IMG/VR virus record: IMGVR_UViG_2529293142_000033
Source: a virus
Lineage: Duplodnaviria; Heunggongvirae; Uroviricota; Caudoviricetes
Direction: 5' to 3' (one strand)
Length of the DNA stretch: 54,512 nt
Shown here: positions 3,475-53,386 of the stretch, one piece after another
Layout of the letters: each line of letters starts with the position of its first letter
Numbering within the stretch: the first letter of the stretch is position 1
Notes under the pieces: generated by a model
What the model was told of the DNA's origin: nothing
Seen by the model: the letters and a program-made list of their open reading frames with translations, nothing else
Databases searched by the model: none
Program-made: the position numbers and the translations under genes

Positions 3475-3857
3475 TGGTTGCCTCCACCTTGGCTCTGAAG
3501 CATGGCAGCGCGGCAGGCGTTCCAGCCATCAACATACCCAGCCATGATATATCGATTAAAACCCACCTCTTTCTGTGCGCGTGCCAGATTCATTTCCTCC
3601 GGCACGTGTACTGGCTGAGCTATATACAGCGGCTGAACATACCAACCCTTTGATAACCAACTGTCAGCAACGTTTTTACTCCGTGTTATTGCCGGAATAC
3701 CTAAGCCATTGTCTGAATGCAGCCATGCCACCGGCTCCTCTTCTAGCGATGCCAGAGCAATTTCATAAGCACGGCGCTCAATATCGTCTCGAACCTCTAG
3801 GCTGCTGATTCGTTCTTTGATTTCTTTAATCAGTTCTTTATTGGTAAATGTGGTCAT
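3471..3857 (-). CDS. hypothetical phage protein
   Basis: 128-aa ORF in operon context, coupled to neighbours. Confidence 0.5.
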   Translation of the reverse strand: MTTFTNKELIKEIKERISSLEVRDDIERRAYEIALASLEEEPVAWLHSDNGLGIPAITRSKNVADSWLSKGWYVQPLYIAQPVHVPEEMNLARAQKEVGFNRYIMAGYVDGWNACRAAMLQSQGGGNQ

Positions 3858-4219
3858 TATGCTCCAGCCTCCGGCGCTTTTGGCATTACTGCCCAGTGAG
3901 TGATATTGAAGTTTTCAAGGTCCCCGACCTGAAATGTCCACTGCCATTCTCCGGTTTCTTTTTGTCCCCAGGTGTACCAGAGAGAACGCCAGCCAATCAG
4001 CCAGCCTTCTCCGTTAGCATCAAATAACAGAACACTTTCATTTGCTGGTGGCAGTTCAGCTGACACTGGTATTATTTTGTTTTCCAGTGCCGCACATTTA
4101 GCTTCAAGCGCGTCGAATTTACGTACTAGGTACTCAGCATTTGTTTCGTTCACTTTCAGATCTCGCGGTACACATTTCCCGCGAAGAAACCCTTCCATTT
4201 CGAAAACATTCATGCGCAT
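3857..4219 (-). CDS. hypothetical phage protein (Trp-rich C-terminal domain, DUF551-like)
   Basis: 120-aa ORF, operon context. Confidence 0.5.
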   Translation of the reverse strand: MRMNVFEMEGFLRGKCVPRDLKVNETNAEYLVRKFDALEAKCAALENKIIPVSAELPPANESVLLFDANGEGWLIGWRSLWYTWGQKETGEWQWTFQVGDLENFNITHWAVMPKAPEAGA

Positions 4220-4746
4220 TTGCGTAACTCCGATAACTCGTTAAAACGTTCCATAAACATCCCGTAGGCATGGCTAGGTGCCAGTGGAATCACGTTGAAC
4301 ATCTCTGTTGCCGGGATGCCTTCCAGTACAGGCCAGAAAGAGCCATCATCAAGCCCGAGATCGCGGCGTTCGGTTGCCAGCATGATAAGATCGGCATATT
4401 TCACGGGCGTACTCATAACTGGGGGTAACCCGTATTTCTCACGGATTACGGCGTCAATTTTTTCTTCCATCCGTTTATAGTCAGGAAGAAGGCGTTTCAG
4501 TGGAGCGGGAATATCCTGGCAATACGCTTCTGTTGCATCATGCATTAACGCTTCAAAAGCAAATTCCTGCGGCACCAGCTGGCTGCAAAGCACCGCATGT
4601 TGGGCGACACTGTAGAAGTGAGAAAGATGACCGGCAAAGCGGCAGATATTTGAAAGGGAAACCGCGATATCGTTAATCACGATGTCGTCTTTATTTATCT
4701 TGTCATAATAAAAATGCTTCCCGGAAAAAGTTTTAATAAATGACAT
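4210..4746 (-). CDS. HD-domain phosphohydrolase (YfdR-like 5'-deoxynucleotidase)
   Basis: HD motif region (HFYSVAQHAV..EALMHDATEAY); start placed at ATG 4746 with ggagaa RBS rather than the longer ORF start at 4773. Confidence 0.7.
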   Translation of the reverse strand: MSFIKTFSGKHFYYDKINKDDIVINDIAVSLSNICRFAGHLSHFYSVAQHAVLCSQLVPQEFAFEALMHDATEAYCQDIPAPLKRLLPDYKRMEEKIDAVIREKYGLPPVMSTPVKYADLIMLATERRDLGLDDGSFWPVLEGIPATEMFNVIPLAPSHAYGMFMERFNELSELRKCA

Positions 4747-4873
4747 TTTGTTCTCCACGTATATGCGCTGCACCGCGCTGAGTTTGGGTAAAAGGAAGCC
4801 CTCACCATCCGGTGATTATTGAGTTAATTACGTTTCCATAAATGCCCCCGCAGGGGCATTTGCAGTAATGAAA

Positions 4874-5698
4874 TCAGGCGGTGAAAGTACCAATAAAGGT
4901 TTCTACGTTGCTGTCTTTGAATTTCTCAACAAGCAGATCACGAAATTCGTTAGCCATATCTTCCTGCACCGCTTCCAGCTGAATAATGCGCAGAACCAGT
5001 ACAGGACGATCGCCAGTGATAATGCTGAGGCGTAATTTAAACGGACGTTCTTTCAGACCTTCAAACGGAACGCATTTAAATTCAAATGCCACTGGCATAA
5101 TGTCTTTGGTCTTCGCTTCGACAGATTCCATCAGGGAGCGTTTGCCGCTGAAGTCATTATCTTCAAAATCAGCGGTCTGGTTTGCTTCAATCGTGATTTT
5201 ACGGACTGCCGCAGCCGCTTTTGTTGCCTGAATAGCGTCACCATTAGCATCAAAGCCCACAAGGTAGTCGGCCCAGTCTTCAATCCATTCTGCCAGTGAC
5301 TTCTGGGAGTTACGCTCGCCGTTAACAGACAACAGGGCAGAGAACGGTGCTGTCTTTTTCAGTTTGAGAGTGGCGGTGTTATCTGCGTGACCTGGTTCAT
5401 CAATAGTACCCAGGTTAAGTACACTGACGGCACGCATATTATCAGCATCGATAAAGCAGCGGGTGCCTTCATCTGCAAGATCTTTAGAATAACGGGTAAA
5501 GTCATCGATGCTGGCAGTGGAAAGCGCACCACGGAAACGGAAGCGATTTAAATTAAATTTTTCCAGATCATGAATGCGGAAATTCTCAGGCAATGCCACA
5601 GCATCGGCACCAATCTTACTGATAATTTCATTAACACCCTGAGCAGAAATAAGGGCATGGATTTGATTAATTGCGGTTGCGTCTAAGTTCTGAGACAT
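4874..5698 (-). CDS. DUF2303 (YfdQ-like) phage protein
   Basis: 274-aa ORF resembling the YfdQ family found in CPS-53-type prophages (recalled). Confidence 0.6.
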
Positions 5699-5763
5699 AA
5701 TAAGTCCTCACTATATAAAGATATTCAGTGATGAGATAAATAATCAGTTAATTAAGAACGATA

Positions 5764-6126
5764 TTAATGACCTGCTGCGCGTAGTTTTCCGTCAGGTTCA
5801 CCGGCAAGAGTCAGTAATTGTCCCTGGTCTTCCTGCAGAATAGTCAGGCGACCACCGCGATTGACATACATCGGCGTTTCGGTGGTGTCTTCTTCGGAAA
5901 TTTTCCCGCGGTTAGTCGGGCGAACATATGAGAGTTTGTGTTTGATTTTCACACGGTTCTCATCAAATGGTTCGATTTCCAGGTTGAGTGAGACCTTACC
6001 TTTGGTTTTCGTGTTCATCACACCTGAAGCGACTTCACTGAGAACTGCGCCGATTTTGGTTTCAAATACGCCGCCGTCCAGCTCCCCGATAAATGCCTGC
6101 ACATCAGTACTGCGTTCGCTAGCCAT
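5764..6126 (-). CDS. hypothetical phage protein (120 aa)
   Basis: start at ATG 6126 with gaggag RBS; the longer 182-aa ORF extension lacks an RBS. Confidence 0.55.
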   Translation of the reverse strand: MASERSTDVQAFIGELDGGVFETKIGAVLSEVASGVMNTKTKGKVSLNLEIEPFDENRVKIKHKLSYVRPTNRGKISEEDTTETPMYVNRGGRLTILQEDQGQLLTLAGEPDGKLRAAGH

Positions 6127-6989
6127 TTTGCTGCTCCTCATCATATCGACCCTGCAAGGTCGGTTGGTTTCTCCACAAAACAGAGAAGAACACCTGCGGT
6201 GGCAGCCGCCCGGATGGATTGGGTTATGAGCCCGTCGTCCGGTGATGCTCTTCTCTGTTTTGTAAAAAGAGCGGTACCAGCCGGAAGCAAGTGTACAAAC
6301 TGGTACCGCCAAAGCAGTGGCTGTTGTGGTGACCGGTGCTGATCTCCGGCTTGCGGTTATTTCAGACTCTCACGGGCGTTTAATTGCCCCGCCGAACAGC
6401 TCTTTTCCGCAATAGCTGCAATGTCTTTCGCGCATCAGCCTGCGCATTCACCACAACGCTGAGAGCACTTAGCCAGTTACGGCACCACACTTTGTCGCGG
6501 CTCCATAAATGCCCTCATCGTTGCCCCCTGGTCTCTTCCCAGGCGTCAAACCGAATCGCCACGCTGGTTAGGCGTCTTATCAGCATCATCATTGACTTGC
6601 ACATTCCGGCTACCTGGTTTGTTTGCCCGAGCAGGGAGTGGATAGTCCCCTTTAACGTCCCCAGACCGCTAACGACGCATGTGCCATACGCCGTGATACA
6701 ACAATATGTTCGGTATTAGTTACCAAAGAGACGATTACTCTTATGGTTGAATGTAATACCCATGTTGAATATTTTTCTTGCTTACTATTTGTTTTATCTA
6801 TGTGGTGAACTGGTTTTTGTTTACACAAGAAAAAGTTTTCTTAAGTAAGTTTACATTGTTTTGTCTTGCTATTTTTTTAAATTCAAGAACAATAAATTGC
6901 CGCTATCAGTAATTATTCTTTATGAAATTTTATAAATAACTCCCTGCTTTTGAGTTCTGTACGCAGTGTTTTTAGTTGTCGAGGACATA

Positions 6990-7199
6990 ATGGATAATCA
7001 AAATACACCTGTTTTTGATGTATGTGGTTGGTACTGTGTGCCCGTTAAAGATCATAATTCAGTTATAGTTCAACTGTCTTGTAAACAACCACCATTTGAA
7101 TCTGATAAAATTATCGAAAGTCCAATATATTCTTTTCCCATAAAAGAAATACCAAATCTCATAAATACATTACAAAACATTTATGAAGAAAATAATTGA
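6990..7199 (+). CDS. small hypothetical protein (69 aa) in AT-rich moron next to repressor
   Basis: ATG with gaggac RBS; preceded by about 270 bp very AT-rich DNA; followed by terminator. Confidence 0.45.
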   Translation: MDNQNTPVFDVCGWYCVPVKDHNSVIVQLSCKQPPFESDKIIESPIYSFPIKEIPNLINTLQNIYEENN

Positions 7200-7218
7200 T
7201 TATAAATCCAGTTCAAAA

Positions 7219-7248
7219 GTGAAGCGTCCATTTGGGCGCTTTTTTATT
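7219..7248 (+). terminator. rho-independent terminator
   Basis: gcgtcca ttt gggcgc hairpin plus T-run. Confidence 0.55.
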
Positions 7249-7394
7249 TACGAATCATTCCGGTCTTCGTATGCCCCGGACGGCTACTTCGTGGGCGTCC
7301 TGCCTGTTCGATATCTTATGTAGGTACATTATGTATCTGTAGGGTACATTGTCAAGTATAAAAAAACCTGCCGAAGCAGGTTCATAGACATTGA

Positions 7395-8068
7395 TCAGGC
7401 TTTAATTTTGTATCTTCTTGGTTTTCCTGAGAAAATAACTGTACCAATGATAGAGCAATTACCGTTTATCTTAATGTAAGGCTCAGGCCAGTTGGGGTTT
7501 AATGCTTTGAGATAACGCTGTGTCCCGTCTTCTATCAACCTTTTGAAGGTGGTTTCACCTGTATCGTGCATCAATGCAATAACGTCATCGCCGTGGCAGG
7601 CTGGTACTTCTGGATCGACAAAAATCATGTCTCCCGGACGGTACTCATCAATCATTGAATCACCAATCACCCTCAATATATAAGTCATTTCGCCACAGGG
7701 TACAGGGCAGGGATACGTTTCTGTTGTGCTCAAATCAACCTCAGAATAGCCAACTTCTTTCCATGCTCCGGCCTGTACCCATGATATGACAGGGACTAAC
7801 GTTATTTTTTATTAGTGATTGAAACATCAGGTTTTTTTGTGATGTTCGTTGTCTGGTGTTCTTGATCAAGCCATCCGACAGGCAGGTCGAAACATTTTTC
7901 GATGTGCCGTGCCATGCTGTCACCGATATTTTTAGTAGCGCCATCCCCCATAAACCTGCTGGTCTGGGTAGGCTCGCGATCAATCATGGTGGCAAAGGAT
8001 GAATTTCCGCCAACACCATCTCTCAGTTTTCTGGCGTTAGACCGCCGGATGTCATGGATTGTTTTCAT
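7395..8068 (-). pseudogene. CI-like repressor (N-terminal HTH plus C-terminal S24 LexA-type peptidase domain), reading frame broken by -1 shift at T6/A6 tract 7805-7810
   Basis: N-terminal ORF 7802-8068 (MKTIHDIRRSNARKL..) ends at the A-run; C-terminal frame from 7808 reads KITLVPVISWVQAGAWKE..GDSM (Ala-Gly autocleavage site and S24 motif); one extra A would fuse them. Confidence 0.75.
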
Positions 8069-8158
8069 AACGAAATTAAAACCTTTGTACCGATAAGGTA
8101 CAAGTATCTTGAAGGTTCATCTCAATCATGTAATATGTATACTGGAGGTACATGTTGT
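8069..8158. promoter_or_regulatory. divergent promoter/operator region between repressor and cro-like gene
   Basis: palindrome ctttgtacc-gataa-ggtacaag (8083-8103) and a further GGTACA half-site near the cro RBS. Confidence 0.55.
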
Positions 8159-8359
8159 ATGAAAGCGTATTGGGACTCTTTAACCAAAGAACAGCAGGGC
8201 GAGTTGGCCGGAAAAGTTGGCTCAACACCTGGCTACTTACGGCTGGTTTTCAATGGTTATAAAAAAGCCAGTTTTGTGCTGGCTAAAAAACTTGAGCAAT
8301 GCACGTCAGGTGCAATTACGAAATATGACTTAAGACCGGATATCTATCCGAAAGATTAA
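8159..8359 (+). CDS. Cro-like HTH regulator
   Basis: 66-aa protein starting at ATG 8159 with ggagg RBS; divergent from repressor. Confidence 0.65.
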   Translation: MKAYWDSLTKEQQGELAGKVGSTPGYLRLVFNGYKKASFVLAKKLEQCTSGAITKYDLRPDIYPKD

Positions 8360-8390
8360 CAGAACACCTTCAATTTTTAACCACAGAACG

Positions 8391-8954
8391 ATGAGGCTAA
8401 CCGTGGGTAAGCATCACTGGAAAGTAGAAAAACAGCCTGAGTGGTACGTGAAAGCTGTCAGAAAAACTATCGCGGCGTTGCCGGGAGGTTACGCTGAAGC
8501 TGCTGAGTGGCTGGATGTAACAGAGAACGCTTTATTCAACCGCCTTCGTGCAGATGGCGATCAGATTTTCCCGCTGGGATGGGCAATGATTTTACAGCGC
8601 GCGGCTGGCACTCACTACATTGCGGATGCTGTCGCACAGTCTGCTGGTGGGGTGTTTGTATCGCTTCCTGAACTTGAGGAAGTAGAGAACGCCGATATAA
8701 ACCAGCGCCTGCTGGAAGTCATCGAACAGATCGGGAGTTACTCAAAGCAGATTCGTTCGGCAATCGAAGATGGGGTAGTGGAGCCACACGAGCAGACAGC
8801 AATTAATGATGAGTTGTATCTGTCAATTTCGAAGCTCCAGGAGCATGCAGCACTGGTCTACAAAATCTTCTGCGCTCCAGAAAAGAGTGACGCCCGCGAG
8901 TGTGCAGCTCCGGGCGTCGTGGCGTTTTGTGTCTGTGGAGAAACTAACGCATGA
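8391..8954 (+). CDS. CII-like phage regulatory protein
   Basis: 187-aa ORF directly after cro-like gene; alternative GTG start at 8403. Confidence 0.55.
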   Translation: MRLTVGKHHWKVEKQPEWYVKAVRKTIAALPGGYAEAAEWLDVTENALFNRLRADGDQIFPLGWAMILQRAAGTHYIADAVAQSAGGVFVSLPELEEVENADINQRLLEVIEQIGSYSKQIRSAIEDGVVEPHEQTAINDELYLSISKLQEHAALVYKIFCAPEKSDARECAAPGVVAFCVCGETNA

Positions 8955-9099
8955 ACAGTTTAACGGCAAATAACCGTTTGTCGCAACAGCTGGTGGTCAG
9001 TGTCGCTGAACACCTGTTGTTACGGCATGAATGCAGATTACCAAATCACCTGGCTGTAAGTAACCACAGAGAACTTTACCTGACTGTGGGGGGCGAGTT

Positions 9100-9279
9100 G
9101 TGCAGGAACTTAACCGCTGGTTTCGTGACGGAAGAGGGCTTTATGTCCATGTTATTCGTTGGGAGCCAGAAACACAGCGCGTTATCTATCTTCGCAAAGA
9201 CTACCCGCATGAGTGCTTTAGTCCTTTGTGGAAATTCAGGCGTGATTTTGTTGAGTGTGAAGGACCACCAGCACATTGA
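9100..9279 (+). CDS. possible small protein (59 aa, Trp/Arg-rich)
   Basis: GTG start with gggggg SD 6-7 nt upstream; protein-like translation QELNRWFRDGRGLYVHVIRWEPETQRVIYLRKDYPHECFSPLWKFRRDFVECEGPPAH; frame differs from the listed 383-aa ORF. Confidence 0.35.
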   Translation: MQELNRWFRDGRGLYVHVIRWEPETQRVIYLRKDYPHECFSPLWKFRRDFVECEGPPAH

Positions 9280-9365
9280 TTCTGCCATTCCGGGACGTTA
9301 CACTGTTCAGGCACCTTATAAAACGGGTGCCGGGATTGGCGTCCTGAAATTGATTACTGAGCATA

Positions 9366-9390
9366 ACCGCGCTCATGCGGTTTTTTCGTG
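9366..9390 (+). terminator. rho-independent terminator (tR1-like) upstream of rha
   Basis: ccgcgctcatgcgg hairpin followed by tttttt. Confidence 0.65.
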
Positions 9391-24783: not shown

Positions 24784-25379
24784 GTGAGCTTAATGACAGT
24801 CGGGCAGTACGCCGAACATGCCGGGGTGAACCGGAAAACAATTTCACGATGGATCAAGGCCGGTACGTTTGTTGTCATGGACGGAAAAAAAATTGACGTG
24901 GAGGCGACAGATAAAAATCTGAAGCGTTTTCGTGACAGCGCCGATCCGCGTGCGGCAAACGGAAAAAAAACAGAGTCGCCAGAAAAGCTAGGGAATCGCA
25001 GTCCGGCACGGTGGAAGGGTTCGAGCAACGGGCAAGAGATGTGTTTGATTCGCTCACCTCCGGGGATGTTGTTATCCGTCCACTGGAAGAGTCCCGCGCA
25101 ATGAAAGAACACTTTTTTGCGGAGATGGCGCGTCTGGAATATGAGGATAAGGACGGAAAGCTGTTTCCGCTGAAACTCGTTACGGAACAGGTCGCTGCTG
25201 AATACACGCGAGTGAGGACGCGCCTTGTTGCCCTTGCGCCTGAGCATGGTCCCCGTCTGCGGGCGCTGGCGGGAATGACGGACGATCAGGGCTTCACGGC
25301 AGCGCTGCAGGAGTTGGTATACGAGGCACTGGATGAACTTGCATTTGAGAAAAGGGAAATCGAAGAAGACCCTTCTTAA
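24784..25379 (+). CDS. terminase small subunit (Nu1-like), with apparent -1 frameshift at A8 tract 24962-24969
   Basis: GTG start after ggagg; N-terminal HTH GQYAEHAGVNRKTISRWIKAG in one frame; protein-like C-terminal 120 aa continues in the -1 frame (ORF 25011-25379); one extra A restores a single ~198-aa ORF. Confidence 0.7.
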
Positions 25380-27312
25380 GAAAGCGCTGATCCAGTTGCA
25401 ACGACATCTTGCATCACCGCAGCCGATGTCCTTAAGCCAGTGGGCCAACACCTTCGCTGTACTGTCCCGTGAGACCAGTGCCCAGACGGGGAAATTCCGC
25501 TCCTATCCCTATCAGGACGGCATGATGGATGCCATCACAGACCCGTCGGTCACGTATGTGTCAGTGATGAAATCAGCCCGTGTGGGATACACGAAAATTC
25601 TTGACCATGTGGTGGGCTATTACCTGGCACATGATCCGTCCCCCATCCTGGTGGTTCAGCCGAGGGTGGAGGACGCCGAAGACTACAGTAAAACCGAAAT
25701 TGCCCCGATGCTGCGCGACACGCCGGTGCTGGCAGCCATCAGCGGCGACCCGAAGGCAAAAAACAGCAACCAGACCATTCTTCGCAAAACCTTTTCCAAC
25801 GGCGCAAACCTCACGCTGGTCGGGGCCAACTCCCCCGGCGGGTTTCGCCGTATCACATGCCGCATCATCCTTTTTGATGAGGTGGACGGGTATCCGGCAG
25901 GGGGCGCAGGATCCGAAGGGGATCAGATTGCGCTGGGAACAAAACGTTCCGAAACCTTCTGGAACCGCAAGATTGTACTCGGCTCCACGCCAACCGTGAA
26001 AGGCGTGAGCCGTATTGAAAAAGCCTGGCTGGAAAGCGATCAGCGCCGCTACTTCGTGCCCTGTCCTCACTGCGGTGAATATCAGGTGCTGGAGTGGGGC
26101 AGCAAAAGCACCCCTTACGGCATCAAATGGGAAAAGGACAGCGAAGGTAACGGGCTGCCGGAGACCGCTTACTACCTGTGCCGCCACCACGGCTGTGTGA
26201 TTGTGCACAGTGAACTGCCCGGGATGCTGGCAAAAGGCGAATGGCGCGCCGGTGCACCATTCAGGGGACATGCCGGTTTTCATATCTGGACGGGCTACAG
26301 CCCGCACTCAAATGCCTCCTGGCCGAATCTGGTCGCCGAGTGGCTGAGGGTGAAGGACGATCCGCTGATGCGCCAGACATTCATCAATACCACGCTGGGC
26401 GAGCCTTACGAGGATGCAGGCGAGTTTGCGATGAGTGAGCAGCGGCTGATTGCCCGCGTTGAGGTCTGGGGGGCGGAGGTGCCGGAGGGCGTGCTCCTGC
26501 TCACCGCCGGGGTGGATACACAGGATGACCGCTTTGAAATCACCGTTCTCGGCTGGGGCATGAACGAAGAGTGCTGGGTGATTGCGCATGACGTGATTTT
26601 TGGTGACCTGGAAACAGAAGAGCCGTGGGAGCGCCTTGACGCGTATCTGAAACAGGTCTGGCGGCGGGCTGACGGTTTCGGGCTGACGCTCTCGGCGGTC
26701 TGTCATGACTCGGGCGGTCATCACACCAACAAAGTGTACGAGTTCTCGAAGGCGCGTATCGGGCGTCGTATCTGGGCGACAAAAGGTGAGTCCGCCACTG
26801 GCGGCAAACGTAACCCTGTCTGGCCGACGCGTGTCGTTTCGTCCCGCAACCGGAAATCCTTCCGCCCCGTCATTCTGGGGGTGAACTCCGCGAAGGACGA
26901 CATCAGGCACCGGCTGCATATTGAGCCGGATCCGGCAGGCGCGCCGACCGCAGGCTGTATCCATTTTCCGTCGTTTCTGGATCTGCACTATTTCAGTCAG
27001 CTGCTCTCTGAGCGTCTGGTGCGTAAGGAGAGCGGCGGGCAGGTGTACCGTGTCTGGGAGTTGTCTTCCGGGCGGGCGAATGAGGCGCTGGACTGCATGG
27101 TGTACGGTTACGCGGCCCTGAAGGGGCTGCTGCATCACGGCCTGAAACTGAACCGTCTGGCTGAACGGACGGCGCAGGATCTGTCGTTTATGGCGCCGCC
27201 TCCCGCGCAGCCGGAAGAAAAAATCAGTTTAAGTATGCCGGGCGCAAAAGCACCGGAGACACCCCGTAAGAAAATACCGCTGCATATGAGGCTTGCAGGA
27301 GTGAGACGATGA
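25333..27312 (+). CDS. terminase large subunit (lambda gpA-like)
   Basis: VMKSARVGYTK, FINTTLGEPYE and NEALDCMVYGYAA segments match lambda gpA pattern; start may be an internal Met (for example 25426). Confidence 0.9.
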   Translation: MNLHLRKGKSKKTLLKKALIQLQRHLASPQPMSLSQWANTFAVLSRETSAQTGKFRSYPYQDGMMDAITDPSVTYVSVMKSARVGYTKILDHVVGYYLAHDPSPILVVQPRVEDAEDYSKTEIAPMLRDTPVLAAISGDPKAKNSNQTILRKTFSNGANLTLVGANSPGGFRRITCRIILFDEVDGYPAGGAGSEGDQIALGTKRSETFWNRKIVLGSTPTVKGVSRIEKAWLESDQRRYFVPCPHCGEYQVLEWGSKSTPYGIKWEKDSEGNGLPETAYYLCRHHGCVIVHSELPGMLAKGEWRAGAPFRGHAGFHIWTGYSPHSNASWPNLVAEWLRVKDDPLMRQTFINTTLGEPYEDAGEFAMSEQRLIARVEVWGAEVPEGVLLLTAGVDTQDDRFEITVLGWGMNEECWVIAHDVIFGDLETEEPWERLDAYLKQVWRRADGFGLTLSAVCHDSGGHHTNKVYEFSKARIGRRIWATKGESATGGKRNPVWPTRVVSSRNRKSFRPVILGVNSAKDDIRHRLHIEPDPAGAPTAGCIHFPSFLDLHYFSQLLSERLVRKESGGQVYRVWELSSGRANEALDCMVYGYAALKGLLHHGLKLNRLAERTAQDLSFMAPPPAQPEEKISLSMPGAKAPETPRKKIPLHMRLAGVRR

Positions 27313-46907: not shown

Positions 46908-48449
46908 ATGCCAACAGTTCCAATTTCTATGAGAAAACTTAAAGAAATTCTTAGGCTTAAATACGGTGTTGGACTCAGCCATCGACAAATTGGTCGTAGT
47001 CTTGCAATCTCCCCTTCCGTTGTATCCAGATATGCTAATCGGGCGGCTCAACTTGGCATAAAGCAGTGGCCCTTACCTACAGGATGGGATGATACAAAAC
47101 TAAAACATGCGTTCCTTCAGACCCAGGTTAAGATGAAGAAGCACTCTCTGCCTGACTGGGCTACAGTACACCGGGAACTGCGTAATAAATGCGTGACGCT
47201 GCAGCTACTCTGGGAAGAATACTGTGAGCGTAATCCAGGCGGTTTTTACAGCTATAACCATTACTGCCGGATGTACCGTGAATGGCTCAAAACCACTTCA
47301 CCATCAATGCGTCAGGTACATAAAGCTGGCGAAAAACTTTTCGTTGATTACTGTGGACCTACCGTTGGCGTTACCGACCCTGAGACCGGAGAAATAAGAA
47401 CTGCTCAGGTCATCGTAGCTGTTCTCGGGGCATCAAGTTACACATGGGCAGAGGCCACCTGGTCTCAGCAGCTTGAAGACTGGGTGATGAGTCATGTTCG
47501 CTGCTTCCAGTGGTTGGGTGGCGTTCCTGAACTTGTTGTTCCGGACAATCTGAAAAGCGCCACATCCAGGGCATGTAAGTATGATCCTGACGTTAACCCT
47601 ACCTACCAGCAGATGCTTGAGCATTATAATGTCGCAGTTTTGCCTGCGCGGCCACGTAAACCGAAAGATAAAGCCAAAGCTGAAGTTGGCGTTCAGGTTG
47701 TTGAACGCTGGATCATGGCCCGAATCAGGCATGAGATCTTCTACAGCCTTGCATCGCTTAATCAGCGCATTCGGGAGTTGCTGGAAAGACTGAATAACAA
47801 AATAATGCAGAAGTTGGGTTATTCACGTGCAGAACTCTTCATCCAGCTTGATAAACCCGCACTGAAGCCTCTTCCTGAAGCCAGTTACAGTTACACCCTG
47901 GTGAAGAAAGTCAGAGTTCATGCCGATTACCACGTGGAAATCGACAAACATTACTACTCGGTTCCATGTTCGCTGTTAGGCCAGCAACTGGAAGCATGGA
48001 TCTCCGGAGAACTGGTAAGACTCTTCAATCAGGGGCAGGAGGTTGCTGTGCACCCGCGCAAGCGTACTTATGGCTACAGTACCCGCAACGAGCACATGCC
48101 TGAAGCTCATCGACAGCATGCCACCTGGACGCCAGAGCGTCTTCTGGAATGGGCGGGGCACATAGGCAGTGAAACTCATAGTTATGTGCTTCATATACTG
48201 AACTCTCGTCCACATCCGGAACAAAGCTATCGCTTCTGCCTTGGACTCCTGAACCTTCATAAAAAATACAGTAAAGCCAGACTTAATGCAGCATGTGCAA
48301 GAGCTCTGAAAACAAAGGTATGGCGTCTGTCAGGTATTAAATCGATCCTGGAAAAAGGTCTGGATAAACAACCTGTTCAGGATCCAAAACCAGATCTGTT
48401 ATCCACGATGGAACACGAAAACGTACGCGGCAGTGAGTATTACCACTGA
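46908..48449 (+). CDS. istA: IS21-family transposase IstA
   Basis: 513 aa with N-terminal HTH and DDE integrase-like core; followed by istB. Confidence 0.85.
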   Translation: MPTVPISMRKLKEILRLKYGVGLSHRQIGRSLAISPSVVSRYANRAAQLGIKQWPLPTGWDDTKLKHAFLQTQVKMKKHSLPDWATVHRELRNKCVTLQLLWEEYCERNPGGFYSYNHYCRMYREWLKTTSPSMRQVHKAGEKLFVDYCGPTVGVTDPETGEIRTAQVIVAVLGASSYTWAEATWSQQLEDWVMSHVRCFQWLGGVPELVVPDNLKSATSRACKYDPDVNPTYQQMLEHYNVAVLPARPRKPKDKAKAEVGVQVVERWIMARIRHEIFYSLASLNQRIRELLERLNNKIMQKLGYSRAELFIQLDKPALKPLPEASYSYTLVKKVRVHADYHVEIDKHYYSVPCSLLGQQLEAWISGELVRLFNQGQEVAVHPRKRTYGYSTRNEHMPEAHRQHATWTPERLLEWAGHIGSETHSYVLHILNSRPHPEQSYRFCLGLLNLHKKYSKARLNAACARALKTKVWRLSGIKSILEKGLDKQPVQDPKPDLLSTMEHENVRGSEYYH

Positions 48450-48460
48450 TACGGGATCCA

Positions 48461-49210
48461 ATGATGAATCATCTTTACGAACAACTGACCGCACTTAAAC
48501 TCACCGGCTTCCGTGATGCGCTTAAAAAGCAACTTGCTCAGCCGGGCACATACCAGGAGCTGGGCTTCGAAGAACGCCTGTCATTACTGACAGCAGAAGA
48601 ACTAACCTGCCGTGAAAACAGGAAGGCAGAGCGTCTGATCAAACATGCACGGTTCAGACTTAATGCTGAGTTATCAAAGCTGGATTATCGTAACAATAGA
48701 GGGCTGGACAGGGCCCTCATCCGTTCACTCAGTCAGGGAAACTGGTTAACCCTGAAACAAAATATTTTACTGACCGGGGCCACCGGCAGCGGTAAAACGT
48801 TCCTGGCATGTGCACTTGGTCATAATGCCTGCCGACAGGGATACAAGGTCTACTATTATCGCCTTAAAGCGCTGATGGAACAGTGCTATCAGGGGCATGC
48901 TGATGGAAGATACAGCAAACTTTTGACCAGGCTGAATAATAGCGATCTGCTGCTTCTGGATGACTGGGGGCTGGAACCTCTCTCATCAGAACAGCGTAGC
49001 GACCTGCTGGAAATAGTGGATCTGATGTACCAACGAGGCTCAATCATCGTAGTGAGCCAGTTGCCGGTGGAAAACTGGTACAAAATGATCGGAGACTCCA
49101 CACATGCGGATGCCATCCTAGATCGACTGGTTCATGGCAGTATCAAGATCGAACTTAAAGGAGAATCAATGCGGAAAATACAATCTCCGTTGACCGAAGG
49201 AGATCAGTGA
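48461..49210 (+). CDS. istB: IS21-family ATP-binding helper IstB
   Basis: 249 aa with Walker A LLTGATGSGKTF and Walker B LLLLDDWG. Confidence 0.85.
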   Translation: MMNHLYEQLTALKLTGFRDALKKQLAQPGTYQELGFEERLSLLTAEELTCRENRKAERLIKHARFRLNAELSKLDYRNNRGLDRALIRSLSQGNWLTLKQNILLTGATGSGKTFLACALGHNACRQGYKVYYYRLKALMEQCYQGHADGRYSKLLTRLNNSDLLLLDDWGLEPLSSEQRSDLLEIVDLMYQRGSIIVVSQLPVENWYKMIGDSTHADAILDRLVHGSIKIELKGESMRKIQSPLTEGDQ

Positions 49211-49267: not shown

Positions 49268-49978
49268 TCACCGATCTCCTTCACGGTAATACGCACTTTC
49301 CACACAGGCATTGTCATAACAGTAGCCTTTCGCACTCATACTGCCACGCAGGTTGTGTCGCTTCAGCAGCGCCTGATAATCCCCTGAACAGTATTGACCA
49401 CCACGGTCCGTATGAACAATGACGCTTTCCGGGCGTCTTCTCCGCCACAACGCCATTTGCAGTGCATCACAGGCCAGTTGTACTGTCATTCGCGGTGACA
49501 TCGACCAGCCAATGACGGCGCGTGACCACAGGTCGATGACTACTGCGAGATACAACCAGCCCTCATCGGTACGCAAGTATGTGATGTCACCCGCCCACTT
49601 CTGGTTCGGGCCACTGGCGCTGAAGTCCTGCTCCAGCAGATTCTCCAATACGGGCAGGCCATGTGCACGGTAGCTGACCGGGCTGAACTTCCGGCTGGCT
49701 TTCGCCTGCAGCCCCTGACGACGTAGGCTGGCGGCAATGGTTTTAATATTGAACTCCGGCAGTTCGTCAGCAAGGCGGGGAGCACCGTATCGCTGCTTTG
49801 CCTCAAAGAATGCCTTATGGACAGCGGCATCGCAGGTGAGCCGAAACTGTTGGCGCAGGCTCATCTGGTGACGACGCCTGAGCCAGACATACCAGCCGCT
49901 GCGGGCAACCCGAAGTACACGACACATCACTTTGATGCTGAACTCTGCCCGATGATTTTCGATGAAGACATACTTCAT
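49268..49978 (-). pseudogene. IS3-family transposase orfB, 5' part (truncated by IS21 insertion; last codons read into IS21 end)
   Basis: ..[46 protein letters not shown] then unrelated tail; matches IS3-family OrfB. Confidence 0.8.
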
Positions 49979-50299: not shown

Positions 50300-51130
50300 T
50301 CAGAGAATGATTTTGGGATATGTAATGAAGTAATGCTTAAACTTTTTTGGAGTTATTCCAAAATATTCCCTAAATTTTTTTATGAAGTATGATGGACTCG
50401 ACATTCCTACTTCCGATGATATCTGAGATATCTGGAGATTGTTTTCGATTATAAGATCCATAGCTCTATTTAATCTTATTTGTAAAGCCATTCCGCTGAT
50501 GGTCAAATTTTCTTTTGCAAGTCGTTTTCTTACTGCAGACTCAGATAGGTGAAAATGCTTAGCTATATCCCGAACGCACCATTTTCTCTTTATGTTCATT
50601 TCAATAAATGCTCTTACCTTATCACTAAAGTGACTGACAGATGATGTAAGCAACGAACGAATGATGTAATCACGATCTTTGAATTTTGAGATAAAAAGTA
50701 GCGTCTTAATCAAAATTAGTTTTTCATCATTGGTAGTTGCAAGTTTTTTGAAAAAGAGTATAAGCTCATCTGTAGGCGTAAGTGTCAGTATTTTATCTCT
50801 TGATATTGCTGATTGATTAATTACCTGATGCCCTTTAAAGTAGATTTCTGCAATTACTCGTCGGAGTGTTTGTAGTTTATCCTCGTTGAATCTTATTGCC
50901 ACATATGGTTCTTTATGTTCATCATTCTTTTTCAGGTAGGCAGAAAAACAAGTTCCTTTATCAATGAAAATGAATTGGTTAAACCCGCATGTCAGTTTTT
51001 TATTTGATAGTGAGAAATTAATAGTGCAATTATTTGTATAAAGAATGATATATTTACTGGTTCTTATGTTAACGATCTTTAACTTTCTTTGTGAATGATG
51101 TTTGATGCTATTAATCATGTGTTTAGCCAT
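50300..51130 (-). CDS. AraC-family transcriptional regulator (AT-rich, horizontally acquired)
   Basis: 276 aa; C-terminal double-HTH (VRDIAKHFHLSESAVRKRLAKENLTISGMALQIRLNRAMDL..ISQISSEVGMSSPSYFIKKFREYFGITPKKF); markedly AT-rich gene. Confidence 0.8.
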   Translation of the reverse strand: MAKHMINSIKHHSQRKLKIVNIRTSKYIILYTNNCTINFSLSNKKLTCGFNQFIFIDKGTCFSAYLKKNDEHKEPYVAIRFNEDKLQTLRRVIAEIYFKGHQVINQSAISRDKILTLTPTDELILFFKKLATTNDEKLILIKTLLFISKFKDRDYIIRSLLTSSVSHFSDKVRAFIEMNIKRKWCVRDIAKHFHLSESAVRKRLAKENLTISGMALQIRLNRAMDLIIENNLQISQISSEVGMSSPSYFIKKFREYFGITPKKFKHYFITYPKIIL

Positions 51131-52026: not shown

Positions 52027-52227
52027 CTACTGAACAAATGTTTTTGCAGAATCCTTATCTGCGGTGCGTGTAACAGAAAGCTCATCATTGCTGGTGGCTT
52101 TTACGATCACTTCTACATCGTCATAACGCTTACTGATGCGCCGAGTTAATTCTTCCTTTAACGCATCCACAGCACTGTTTGGCATTTTAGTCATTTTCTC
52201 TTTGGCTATGCAGATATCAATACGCAT
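52027..52227 (-). CDS. DinI-like protein
   Basis: 66 aa, [26 protein letters not shown] resembles DinI. Confidence 0.6.
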
Positions 52228-52288: not shown

Positions 52289-53386
52289 TCAAGAGGTCTT
52301 GTTTCTGCTCCTTTGGAGTTCTTCAAAACGATTATGTAAAGATTTCGGATACAGTTCGGTATATACCTGCCATAGCACGTTTAATGAACGATGCCCTGTA
52401 ACCTGAGCGACTTCCTCAATACTAAAACCAGCCTCAAATAAGCGACTTGCCCCTTCCCTACGCAAATCATGGTATCGCAGATCTTTAATACCTAATTTGC
52501 TTCTTACCCTCTGAAATCCTGCGGTAACAGAAGTGCTGTTATATGGAAAAATGAATTCTGATTTTTGGGGTTGTTGCTGGACGATATCCCAGGCTTCCCC
52601 AAGCAAGGCAACTTTCATATGGTTGCCTTCCTTTTTACGTGGATCTTTCCTATCTCTTACTAGTATAGATTTTTGTTCCTGGTCGAGATCTTCCCATCGT
52701 AACCGGCATACTTCTCCAATTCGCATACAGGACCACACAGAAAATTTGAGGATATCAACGAACGGAATTTTTGAGCATTTATGAGTAGATCGTTGTTGAA
52801 GGCCTTCAATGAGCATGTCCAGTTCATCAGATGCTGGTCTACGATTACGACGGTTTGATTTACCAATCAAACCGAGTTTAAGTAGATATGGACGAGCGCT
52901 TTTCGCCGGGTTTGATGTGTAATTGATTCCGTATACAGGTTTTGCCGCATCCAGAACACTGCCAAGATAACTAACATCGTGGCTGACTGTTGCTGGGCCT
53001 GCACCAGCGTTGTTTCTTAGCCTGCAATGTTCAATTACGTCATTTTCTGTCAGTTCAGATAGTTTGATCGCGGAGATGTCGCTATCCATAAGCAGTTCCA
53101 GCACATATCTTTTAGTACGGCCTGCTTTACCTCCGGCATTTGGGTCATTTAAATATTTGTGTAGTAAGTCACGGACTGTAAGTCCGTCAACAGCATTTGA
53201 TGATGGAATGCCATATAGATCTAATTCCATCACTTTCTGTGCGCCCCATGTTTTGGCATGAGCATGTTTAGGGAATGTTTTGCTTTCCCTGTAAGTGATA
53301 ACACCTTTTTCTTTGATAATCACATTACAGCGATAGCGTGGTGTGCCATCGGATTTTAGTCGTTTCTCTATGTTATAGTACGCCAT
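52289..53386 (-). CDS. tyrosine-type site-specific integrase (dusA-associated)
   Basis: 365 aa, C-terminal catalytic region with conserved R..H..R..Y pattern (..DLRYHDLRREGASRLFEAGF..VAQVTGHRSLNVLWQVYTELYP); immediately adjacent and divergent to dusA. Confidence 0.9.
   Translation of the reverse strand: MAYYNIEKRLKSDGTPRYRCNVIIKEKGVITYRESKTFPKHAHAKTWGAQKVMELDLYGIPSSNAVDGLTVRDLLHKYLNDPNAGGKAGRTKRYVLELLMDSDISAIKLSELTENDVIEHCRLRNNAGAGPATVSHDVSYLGSVLDAAKPVYGINYTSNPAKSARPYLLKLGLIGKSNRRNRRPASDELDMLIEGLQQRSTHKCSKIPFVDILKFSVWSCMRIGEVCRLRWEDLDQEQKSILVRDRKDPRKKEGNHMKVALLGEAWDIVQQQPQKSEFIFPYNSTSVTAGFQRVRSKLGIKDLRYHDLRREGASRLFEAGFSIEEVAQVTGHRSLNVLWQVYTELYPKSLHNRFEELQRSRNKTS

Follow-up and report, generated by a model that had tools for sequence, protein, structure and literature searches.

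A split ymfK repressor gene in a prophage of STEC strain 031 most likely reflects a 454 homopolymer undercall

Is the repressor gene of this prophage broken in the cell, or only in its assembly? In the 54,512-nucleotide stretch of DNA analysed here (the window; AFDY02000024.1 of GCA_000225185.3, from STEC strain 031), the repressor gene ymfK is interrupted at a run of six A's on its coding strand. Comparison with intact alleles makes it likely that the missing A is a homopolymer undercall of a seven-base run by 454 sequencing and that the gene is intact, encoding 224 amino acids, in the cell; the lesion would then most likely be absent from the organism. We infer the wrong base call from what the sequence itself, homology, the state of the tract in relatives and the sequencing platform show.

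The 88-aa open reading frame (ORF) at the 5′ end of the gene (Table 1) finishes with AAT AAA AAA TAA, its stop standing straight after the A6 run, while the frame shifted by one base (7808-7395) encodes ...ITLVPVISWVQAGAWKEV...VIGDSM...TFKRL.... Inserting one A into the run yields a continuous protein of 224 aa, in which Peptidase_S24 (PF00717, E = 1.3e-26) matches residues 93-212 over the whole of its profile (1-116/116). A preliminary description of this DNA had placed the HTH and S24 portions in different frames overlapping at T6 (7805-7810), with a VQAG cleavage site and a GDSM motif in the S24 frame, and had proposed that one extra base would restore a single CI/LexA-type repressor. All of its coordinates hold, both motifs were located (residues 98-101 and 135-138, respectively), and the full-length S24 match of the 224-aa protein bears out the proposed repair. 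A further GDSM at residues 49-52, in the N-terminal domain, is coincidental, the catalytic one being that at 135-138. Both pieces are 100% identical to halves of intact YmfK from strain 2015C-4136CT1 (hereafter H1), the 88-aa ORF to residues 1-88 and the S24-frame piece to residues 88-224, so the split is not a chance arrangement of frames. The repaired protein is identical to one found on 776 contigs; the exact 88-aa product occurs on a single contig. As assembled, the two domains do not share one polypeptide (TAA at 7804-7802, S24 frame offset by one base). Each of the 1,325 genome records and of the 159 loci of viral or metagenome origin that were examined has them joined; the exception in the window is probably a base-calling artefact.

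To judge from sequence and gene order, the gene is ymfK, a LexA/lambda-CI-type repressor of e14-immunity prophages. Megablast of positions 7300-8400 against 5,426 complete E. coli genomes returned 1,329 records at 90-99.6% identity, with matches annotated as ymfK/ymfT in 1,327 records at 95-99.6% identity over 1,101 nt. The matching loci carry the annotations ymfK (LexA family protein) and ymfT (YdaS-family HTH), with ymfL downstream, and it is this combination of high identity and ymfK-ymfT-ymfL synteny that places the gene in the orthologue group of e14 ymfK. Residues 1-75 align to the DNA-binding domain of the SPC32H repressor (5d50, E = 4.6e-4), and the N-terminal part matches phrog_12107, a 'transcriptional repressor' (E = 8.6e-14), and phrog_5736 (E = 2.3e-11); Pfam HTH models gave no match to YmfK at E <= 0.01. 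The repaired protein matches phrog_4, a family of phage proteins labelled 'transcriptional repressor' (E = 1.3e-49), and its C-terminal half aligns with the C-terminal domain of lambda CI (1f39/2ho0, E about 2e-9). An N-terminal DNA-binding domain, a Ser/Lys dyad and an Ala-Gly bond in the linker, the features that mark LexA/lambda-CI (S24) repressors, are thus all found.

How would such a protein work? By analogy with lambda CI, the N-terminal domain (residues 1-75) would bind operators of the form TGTACC-N5-GGTACA to either side of the gene, and dimerisation and cooperativity would come from the S24 domain. Upon DNA damage, RecA would stimulate self-cleavage at Ala100-Gly101 by Ser138 and Lys176, the domains would separate, and the lytic promoters would be derepressed. 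This mechanism, both the RecA-stimulated cleavage and the operator-dependent repression, we infer from homology. The likeness to lambda CI extends to the two-domain layout, the linker Ala-Gly, the conserved Ser and Lys of the C-terminal domain, the divergent orientation relative to a cro-like gene and the operator-like palindromes flanking both sides. In contrast, the YmfK N-terminal domain is not lambda-like in sequence but of the SPC32H type, and the operator sequences differ.

Table 1. Features of the ymfK region and of the cargo region, by position in the window
Feature	Position	Strand	Remarks
Leftward sigma-70-like promoter, strong	7328..7355	-	TTGACA-16-CATAAT, 11/12; inferred PL/OL
Intrinsic-terminator-like hairpin with T-run	7364..7383	-	Directly after the ymfK stop
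ymfK 3′ part	7395..7808	-	Frame shifted by one base; remaining linker, Ala-Gly cleavage site and S24 peptidase/dimerisation domain; stop TGA 7397-7395
Lys176 codon	7542..7544	-	Predicted general base, by alignment (FKRL vs lambda CI FKKL)
Ser138 codon	7656..7658	-	Predicted nucleophile, by alignment (GDSM vs lambda CI GNSM)
Ala100-Gly101 codons	7767..7772	-	Predicted autocleavage bond (VQAG), read from sequence
ymfK 5′ part as assembled	7802..8068	-	88-aa ORF, ATG at 8068; DNA-binding domain (residues 1-75) and most of the linker; stop TAA 7804-7802
Homopolymer	7805..7810		T6 on the plus strand, A6 on the coding minus strand
Another A/T run of seven bases within ymfK	7832..7838		Full length in the window
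ymfK-ymfT intergenic control region	8086..8152		Inferred OR/PRM/PR
ymfT	8159..8359	+	Cro-like YdaS-family HTH protein; divergent from ymfK
ymfL	8391..8954	+	CII-like regulator (Phage_CP76); start annotated in relatives at 8403
IS21-family element, ISEc12-like	46908-49210		Cargo region; istA 46908-48449, istB 48461-49210
IS3-family transposase fragment	49268-49978		Cargo region
AraC-family regulator	50300-51130		Cargo region

What is the state of the tract elsewhere? H1, the closest relative, reads AAT AAA AAA ATA at this site (A7, Asn-Lys-Lys-Ile) and shows no other difference from the window in 702 aligned bases, while more distant relatives read AAT AAA CAA ATA (Lys-Gln). Read together, these alleles indicate that a C-to-A change made the A7 run of a minority allele, from which the window differs by lacking one A. 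The preliminary description had missed both the derived, minority status of the A-run and the reported essentiality of YmfK in K-12. It had suggested a comparison of tract length in related prophages, and that comparison went against a shared A6 state: the 1,325 complete-genome records held no exact match to A6 and four exact 91-mer matches to A7, with AAACAAA confirmed in at least two of the records (H10 and H33); the 159 viral or metagenome loci, recovered with a window-derived anchor beside the tract, held AAACAAA in 151 cases, A7 in five, another 7-nt sequence in three and A6 in none. In these records and loci the tract is seven nucleotides long instead. A 25-mer containing A6 likewise had no match in the genome_contigs, viral_contigs and metagenome_contigs collections, and all relatives encode one in-frame protein at the tract site.

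Two sets of candidate A6 cases were rejected. At two loci (L005 and L006) a 112-aa S24 fragment is called separately, but the tract is AAACAAA or A7, and one-base losses lie in other A-runs, as is typical of noisy assemblies. Contigs with a 97-aa S24 fragment are broken elsewhere, never at the tract, being disrupted at the other A7 run, at a C-run or by multiple indels. The second seven-base run inside ymfK (Table 1) lacks one base in three other assemblies that are drafts or noisy.

The window comes from an assembly of a kind prone to such losses. AFDY00000000 is the LEE-negative STEC strain 031 (O174:H21, stx2b and stx2c; 'H.I.8' in the appendix table) and was made with the Celera assembler from 454 Titanium FLX paired-end reads only (PMC3491183). 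Deletion errors of 454 Titanium concentrate in homopolymers, and the position-specific error can exceed 50% of reads (PMC3116506). The sole other contig with A6, Logan SRR057628_386 (11,153 nt), is 100% identical to window positions 3708-14860; as strain and 454 run are shared with the window, its A6 is no platform-independent confirmation. Since Celera (the NCBI record) and the Logan pipeline both give A6, the shorter run is probably the majority read call and not an assembler quirk. A census of homopolymers, made against three related prophages, found 116 of 120 runs of at least five bases to be as long as in H1, and comparison of the 66 annotated proteins of the related H1 prophage with the window revealed no frameshift in any window gene other than ymfK, which together indicate a low local consensus error rate. 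The census is compatible either with a low rate of 454 consensus error or with real polymorphism. The only other long homopolymer at which the window is a short outlier is the intergenic run at 16707-16713, T7 in the window and T8 in all three related prophages compared, which is compatible with 454 undercalling or with real polymorphism.

The prophage itself, about 50 kb long, is flanked by a DUF2713 gene to the left and by dusA to the right, with a tyrosine integrase (52289-53386) adjoining dusA. Measured against H1, it has full-length genes for replication, antitermination, lysis, head and tail, many of them 99-100% identical; antiterminator, holin and endolysin are intact and each 100% identical to relatives. 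Besides ymfK, one gene is broken, that for a Mu GpP/gp44-type baseplate hub (39158-40246; 362 aa in relatives), in which a G to A change at 39471 converts codon 39470-39472 from TGG to TAG (W105*) and leaves ORFs of 104 aa and 254 aa. Being a substitution, this amber codon is not a homopolymer artefact and probably represents real damage that disables tail assembly; the two hub fragments are on record only from strain 031 (the NCBI record and the Logan assembly). The cargo region, with its IS elements, lies between the tail-fibre assembly gene and the integrase, where related prophages carry an alpha/beta hydrolase gene instead.

The ymfK split resembles the spurious frameshifts of 454-only drafts: the data are pyrosequencing (Titanium) only, one base is affected in a long, seven-base run, the change is unique to the assembly, and the flanks do not differ from those of the intact allele. 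It differs from them in that most other long runs here agree with relatives. An artefact is favoured because the lesion is of exactly the 454 error type (one base lost from a seven-base run) in 454-only data, because none of the other isolates and metagenomes searched has A6, and because the downstream 414 nt, which would no longer be under selection, show no substitution relative to the intact allele. In the same direction point the second long run that is one base short (T7 vs T8 at 16707) and the other noisy assemblies that lose one base in other A-runs of ymfK. Biology adds a further argument. In K-12, ymfK is essential according to the Keio collection and two transposon studies, and is the one below-threshold gene so classed (PMC10350078); the region downstream of ymfK encodes an SOS-inducible division inhibitor (PMC6206680). 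Given this essentiality and the intact lysis cassette of the present prophage, a true repressor null should be poorly tolerated. The split that the preliminary description reported thus stands as a structure. The consequence that it named, on condition that the lesion is real, was a non-inducible or unstable prophage; a homopolymer miscall is more likely than a biological lesion, with a 454-only source and no relatives with A6.

Several observations count against an artefact: A6 emerges from two assemblers, most runs are as in relatives, no other frameshift is present, the prophage carries real damage (the amber codon and the IS insertions), and A7 is a natural slippage hotspot. The same observations speak for the main alternative, which we regard as possible though rather unlikely: a real and recent loss of one A by replication slippage in the derived A7 run of a decaying prophage. 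The repressor would then be cut to an 88-aa fragment with its DNA-binding domain complete but the cleavage site, the dimerisation/cooperativity domain and the catalytic dyad gone, the equivalent of the N-terminal fragment that RecA-stimulated cleavage releases from lambda CI. That lambda CI fragment binds operators weakly. For the lysogen to survive, the shortened YmfK would have to provide residual, weak and SOS-blind repression, or a homoimmune repressor from another prophage would have to act in trans, or recoding would have to leak. A repressor in trans is plausible, as twelve Stx2c-converting phages share the cI/cro region at about 95.4% identity, strain 031 is stx2c-positive, and some E. 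coli genomes hold up to three copies of the immunity region.

Set against a real mutation are the 454-only data, for which this lesion is the textbook error; the complete absence of A6 from other isolates and metagenomes (1,325 records, 159 loci and three collection scans); the essentiality of ymfK in K-12 (PMC10350078) beside a lysis cassette that is intact here; and the zero substitutions downstream, which demand that a real event be very recent. As our own rough estimate of the priors, consensus errors affect a few per cent of runs of at least seven bases in 454-only drafts, and tolerated real slippage on so short a branch is expected at well under one per cent; on this basis we hold the artefact to be the likely explanation and assign real mutation a clearly minor, if appreciable, share. 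A bolder version of the latter, in which A6 is real, a prophage with intact lysis genes is held by an 88-aa 'pre-cleaved' and SOS-blind repressor, perhaps topped up by -1 slippage, and A7 serves as a mutational on/off switch for inducibility, seems to us highly improbable.

Less probable still is that A6 followed by UAA constitutes a recoding site, at which a -1 slip by a minority of ribosomes (P-site tRNA-Lys, AAA to AAA), or an A added by RNA polymerase, would yield the 88-aa DNA-binding fragment plus some full-length 224-aa repressor. On AAA AAA UAA, tRNA-Lys could re-pair perfectly after a -1 step beside a slowly decoded stop, the -1 frame runs open to the normal stop, and leakage of this kind could help to explain viability if A6 were real. 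Stop codons beside slippery runs raise frameshifting, whereas six A's are short for efficient transcriptional slippage. However, the slippery run is not conserved, with 151 of 159 loci reading AAACAAA and all relatives having a single in-frame ORF, and A6 occurs in one assembly only. Folding of 7830-7700 gave no sign of an RNA structure that might stimulate slippage (z = 0.13, with 100 of 200 shuffled sequences folding as well or better), and nothing resembling a Shine-Dalgarno element can be seen upstream of A6. Programmed -1 frameshifting and transcriptional slippage were therefore rejected, neither the run nor the two-frame layout being conserved and no stimulatory element accompanying them. 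An independently translated S24 fragment, starting at TTG 7733 or at the ATG of MTYILRV, was dismissed as well, with no convincing ribosome-binding site visible; such a product would be without the DNA-binding domain and the cleavage site.

What follows for users of this sequence? If the split is an artefact, AFDY02, a 454-only assembly, should be used to call pseudogenes of prophages at homopolymers only where reads back the call, and the annotation of the 'split repressor' should mark it as a frameshift that probably arose in sequencing. A real split would be an ordinary, recent pseudogenising slippage in a decaying prophage that affects a well-known repressor, and the modest interest would lie in a lysogen that tolerates loss of the C-terminal domain of a repressor reported essential in K-12. 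Either way, the split matters little biologically.

Relative to e14 of K-12, the order and orientation of ymfK, ymfT (cro-like) and ymfL (CII-like) are the same, and YmfK is 224 aa once repaired. The differences are that ymfK here is split by one missing base in the assembly, that it carries the minority Lys-Lys (A7) allele in place of Lys-Gln (AAACAAA), and that its host element is a dusA-integrated prophage of about 50 kb with a Mu-type baseplate and contractile-tail genes. The e14 remnant measures 15 kb. The cI/cro regions of SfIV, cdtI, Ayreon and Stx2c-converting phages are 95.2-95.5% identical to positions 7300-8400 over 99-100% of the length; their repressors are all in frame and sit in different phage backbones, a sign of mosaicism. 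From this identity, these phages are probably homoimmune, or nearly so, with the present prophage.

The layout around ymfK appears lambda-like, with operator-like palindromes, promoter and terminator. A palindrome with one mismatch (7332-7348) overlaps the leftward promoter (7355-7328), and the motif TGTACC-N5-GGTACA occurs in perfect form at 8086-8102 and with two mismatches at 8136-8152, within the ymfK-ymfT intergenic region. At the protein level, ymfT and ymfL are 98.5% and 98.4% identical to their H1 counterparts. Beyond the inferred PL, the segment 6312-7251 is without counterpart in H1, the closest related prophage; it holds, on the opposite strand, a 77-aa ORF (6966-7199) with its own terminator (7221-7242), whose exact protein occurs on 167 contigs and had no match in Pfam. 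The segment looks like a moron inserted where lambda has rex-type genes.

Further genes with possible regulatory roles lie along the prophage. Directly after ymfL, a 383-aa protein of Phage_ASH + Rha fusion type is encoded at 8951-10102 (+); in H1 this place is taken by a 193-aa protein of the Ash family. The window further encodes a second Rha/ORF11CD3 protein (17502-18089) and one of KilA-N type (13053-13964), and all three belong to families often annotated as antirepressor-like. At 12279-12605 (+), a 108-aa protein consists of a LexA DNA-binding domain only (PF01726, E = 2.9e-19) and is without S24; it is 100% identical to its H1 homologue and annotated in other related prophages. To go by its domain content, it would be a non-cleavable LexA look-alike among the early genes, and it might interfere with or mimic SOS-box binding. 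A 66-aa ORF at 52027-52227 (-) adjoins the integrase, where related loci have a 66-aa gene with a Pfam match to DinI. DinI proteins modulate RecA co-protease activity, and a DinI at this place, assigned by position, would bear on the induction of a prophage with an S24 repressor.

Four tRNA genes (16114-16423) form a cluster that lies downstream of the antiterminator gene and is kept in related prophages; it comprises a tRNA with CAT anticodon (Met according to ARAGORN; tRNA-Ile in relatives), Arg-TCT, Thr-TGT and Gly-TCC. Finally, the closest complete genome (L007, NZ_CP027550.1) has a frameshifted terminase large subunit: at positions aligned to 25832 and 26468 it reads C4 and G5 versus C5 and G6 in the window, where the 659-aa ORF (25333-27312) is unbroken. 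The comparison genomes, too, thus contain errors or mutations in homopolymer length.
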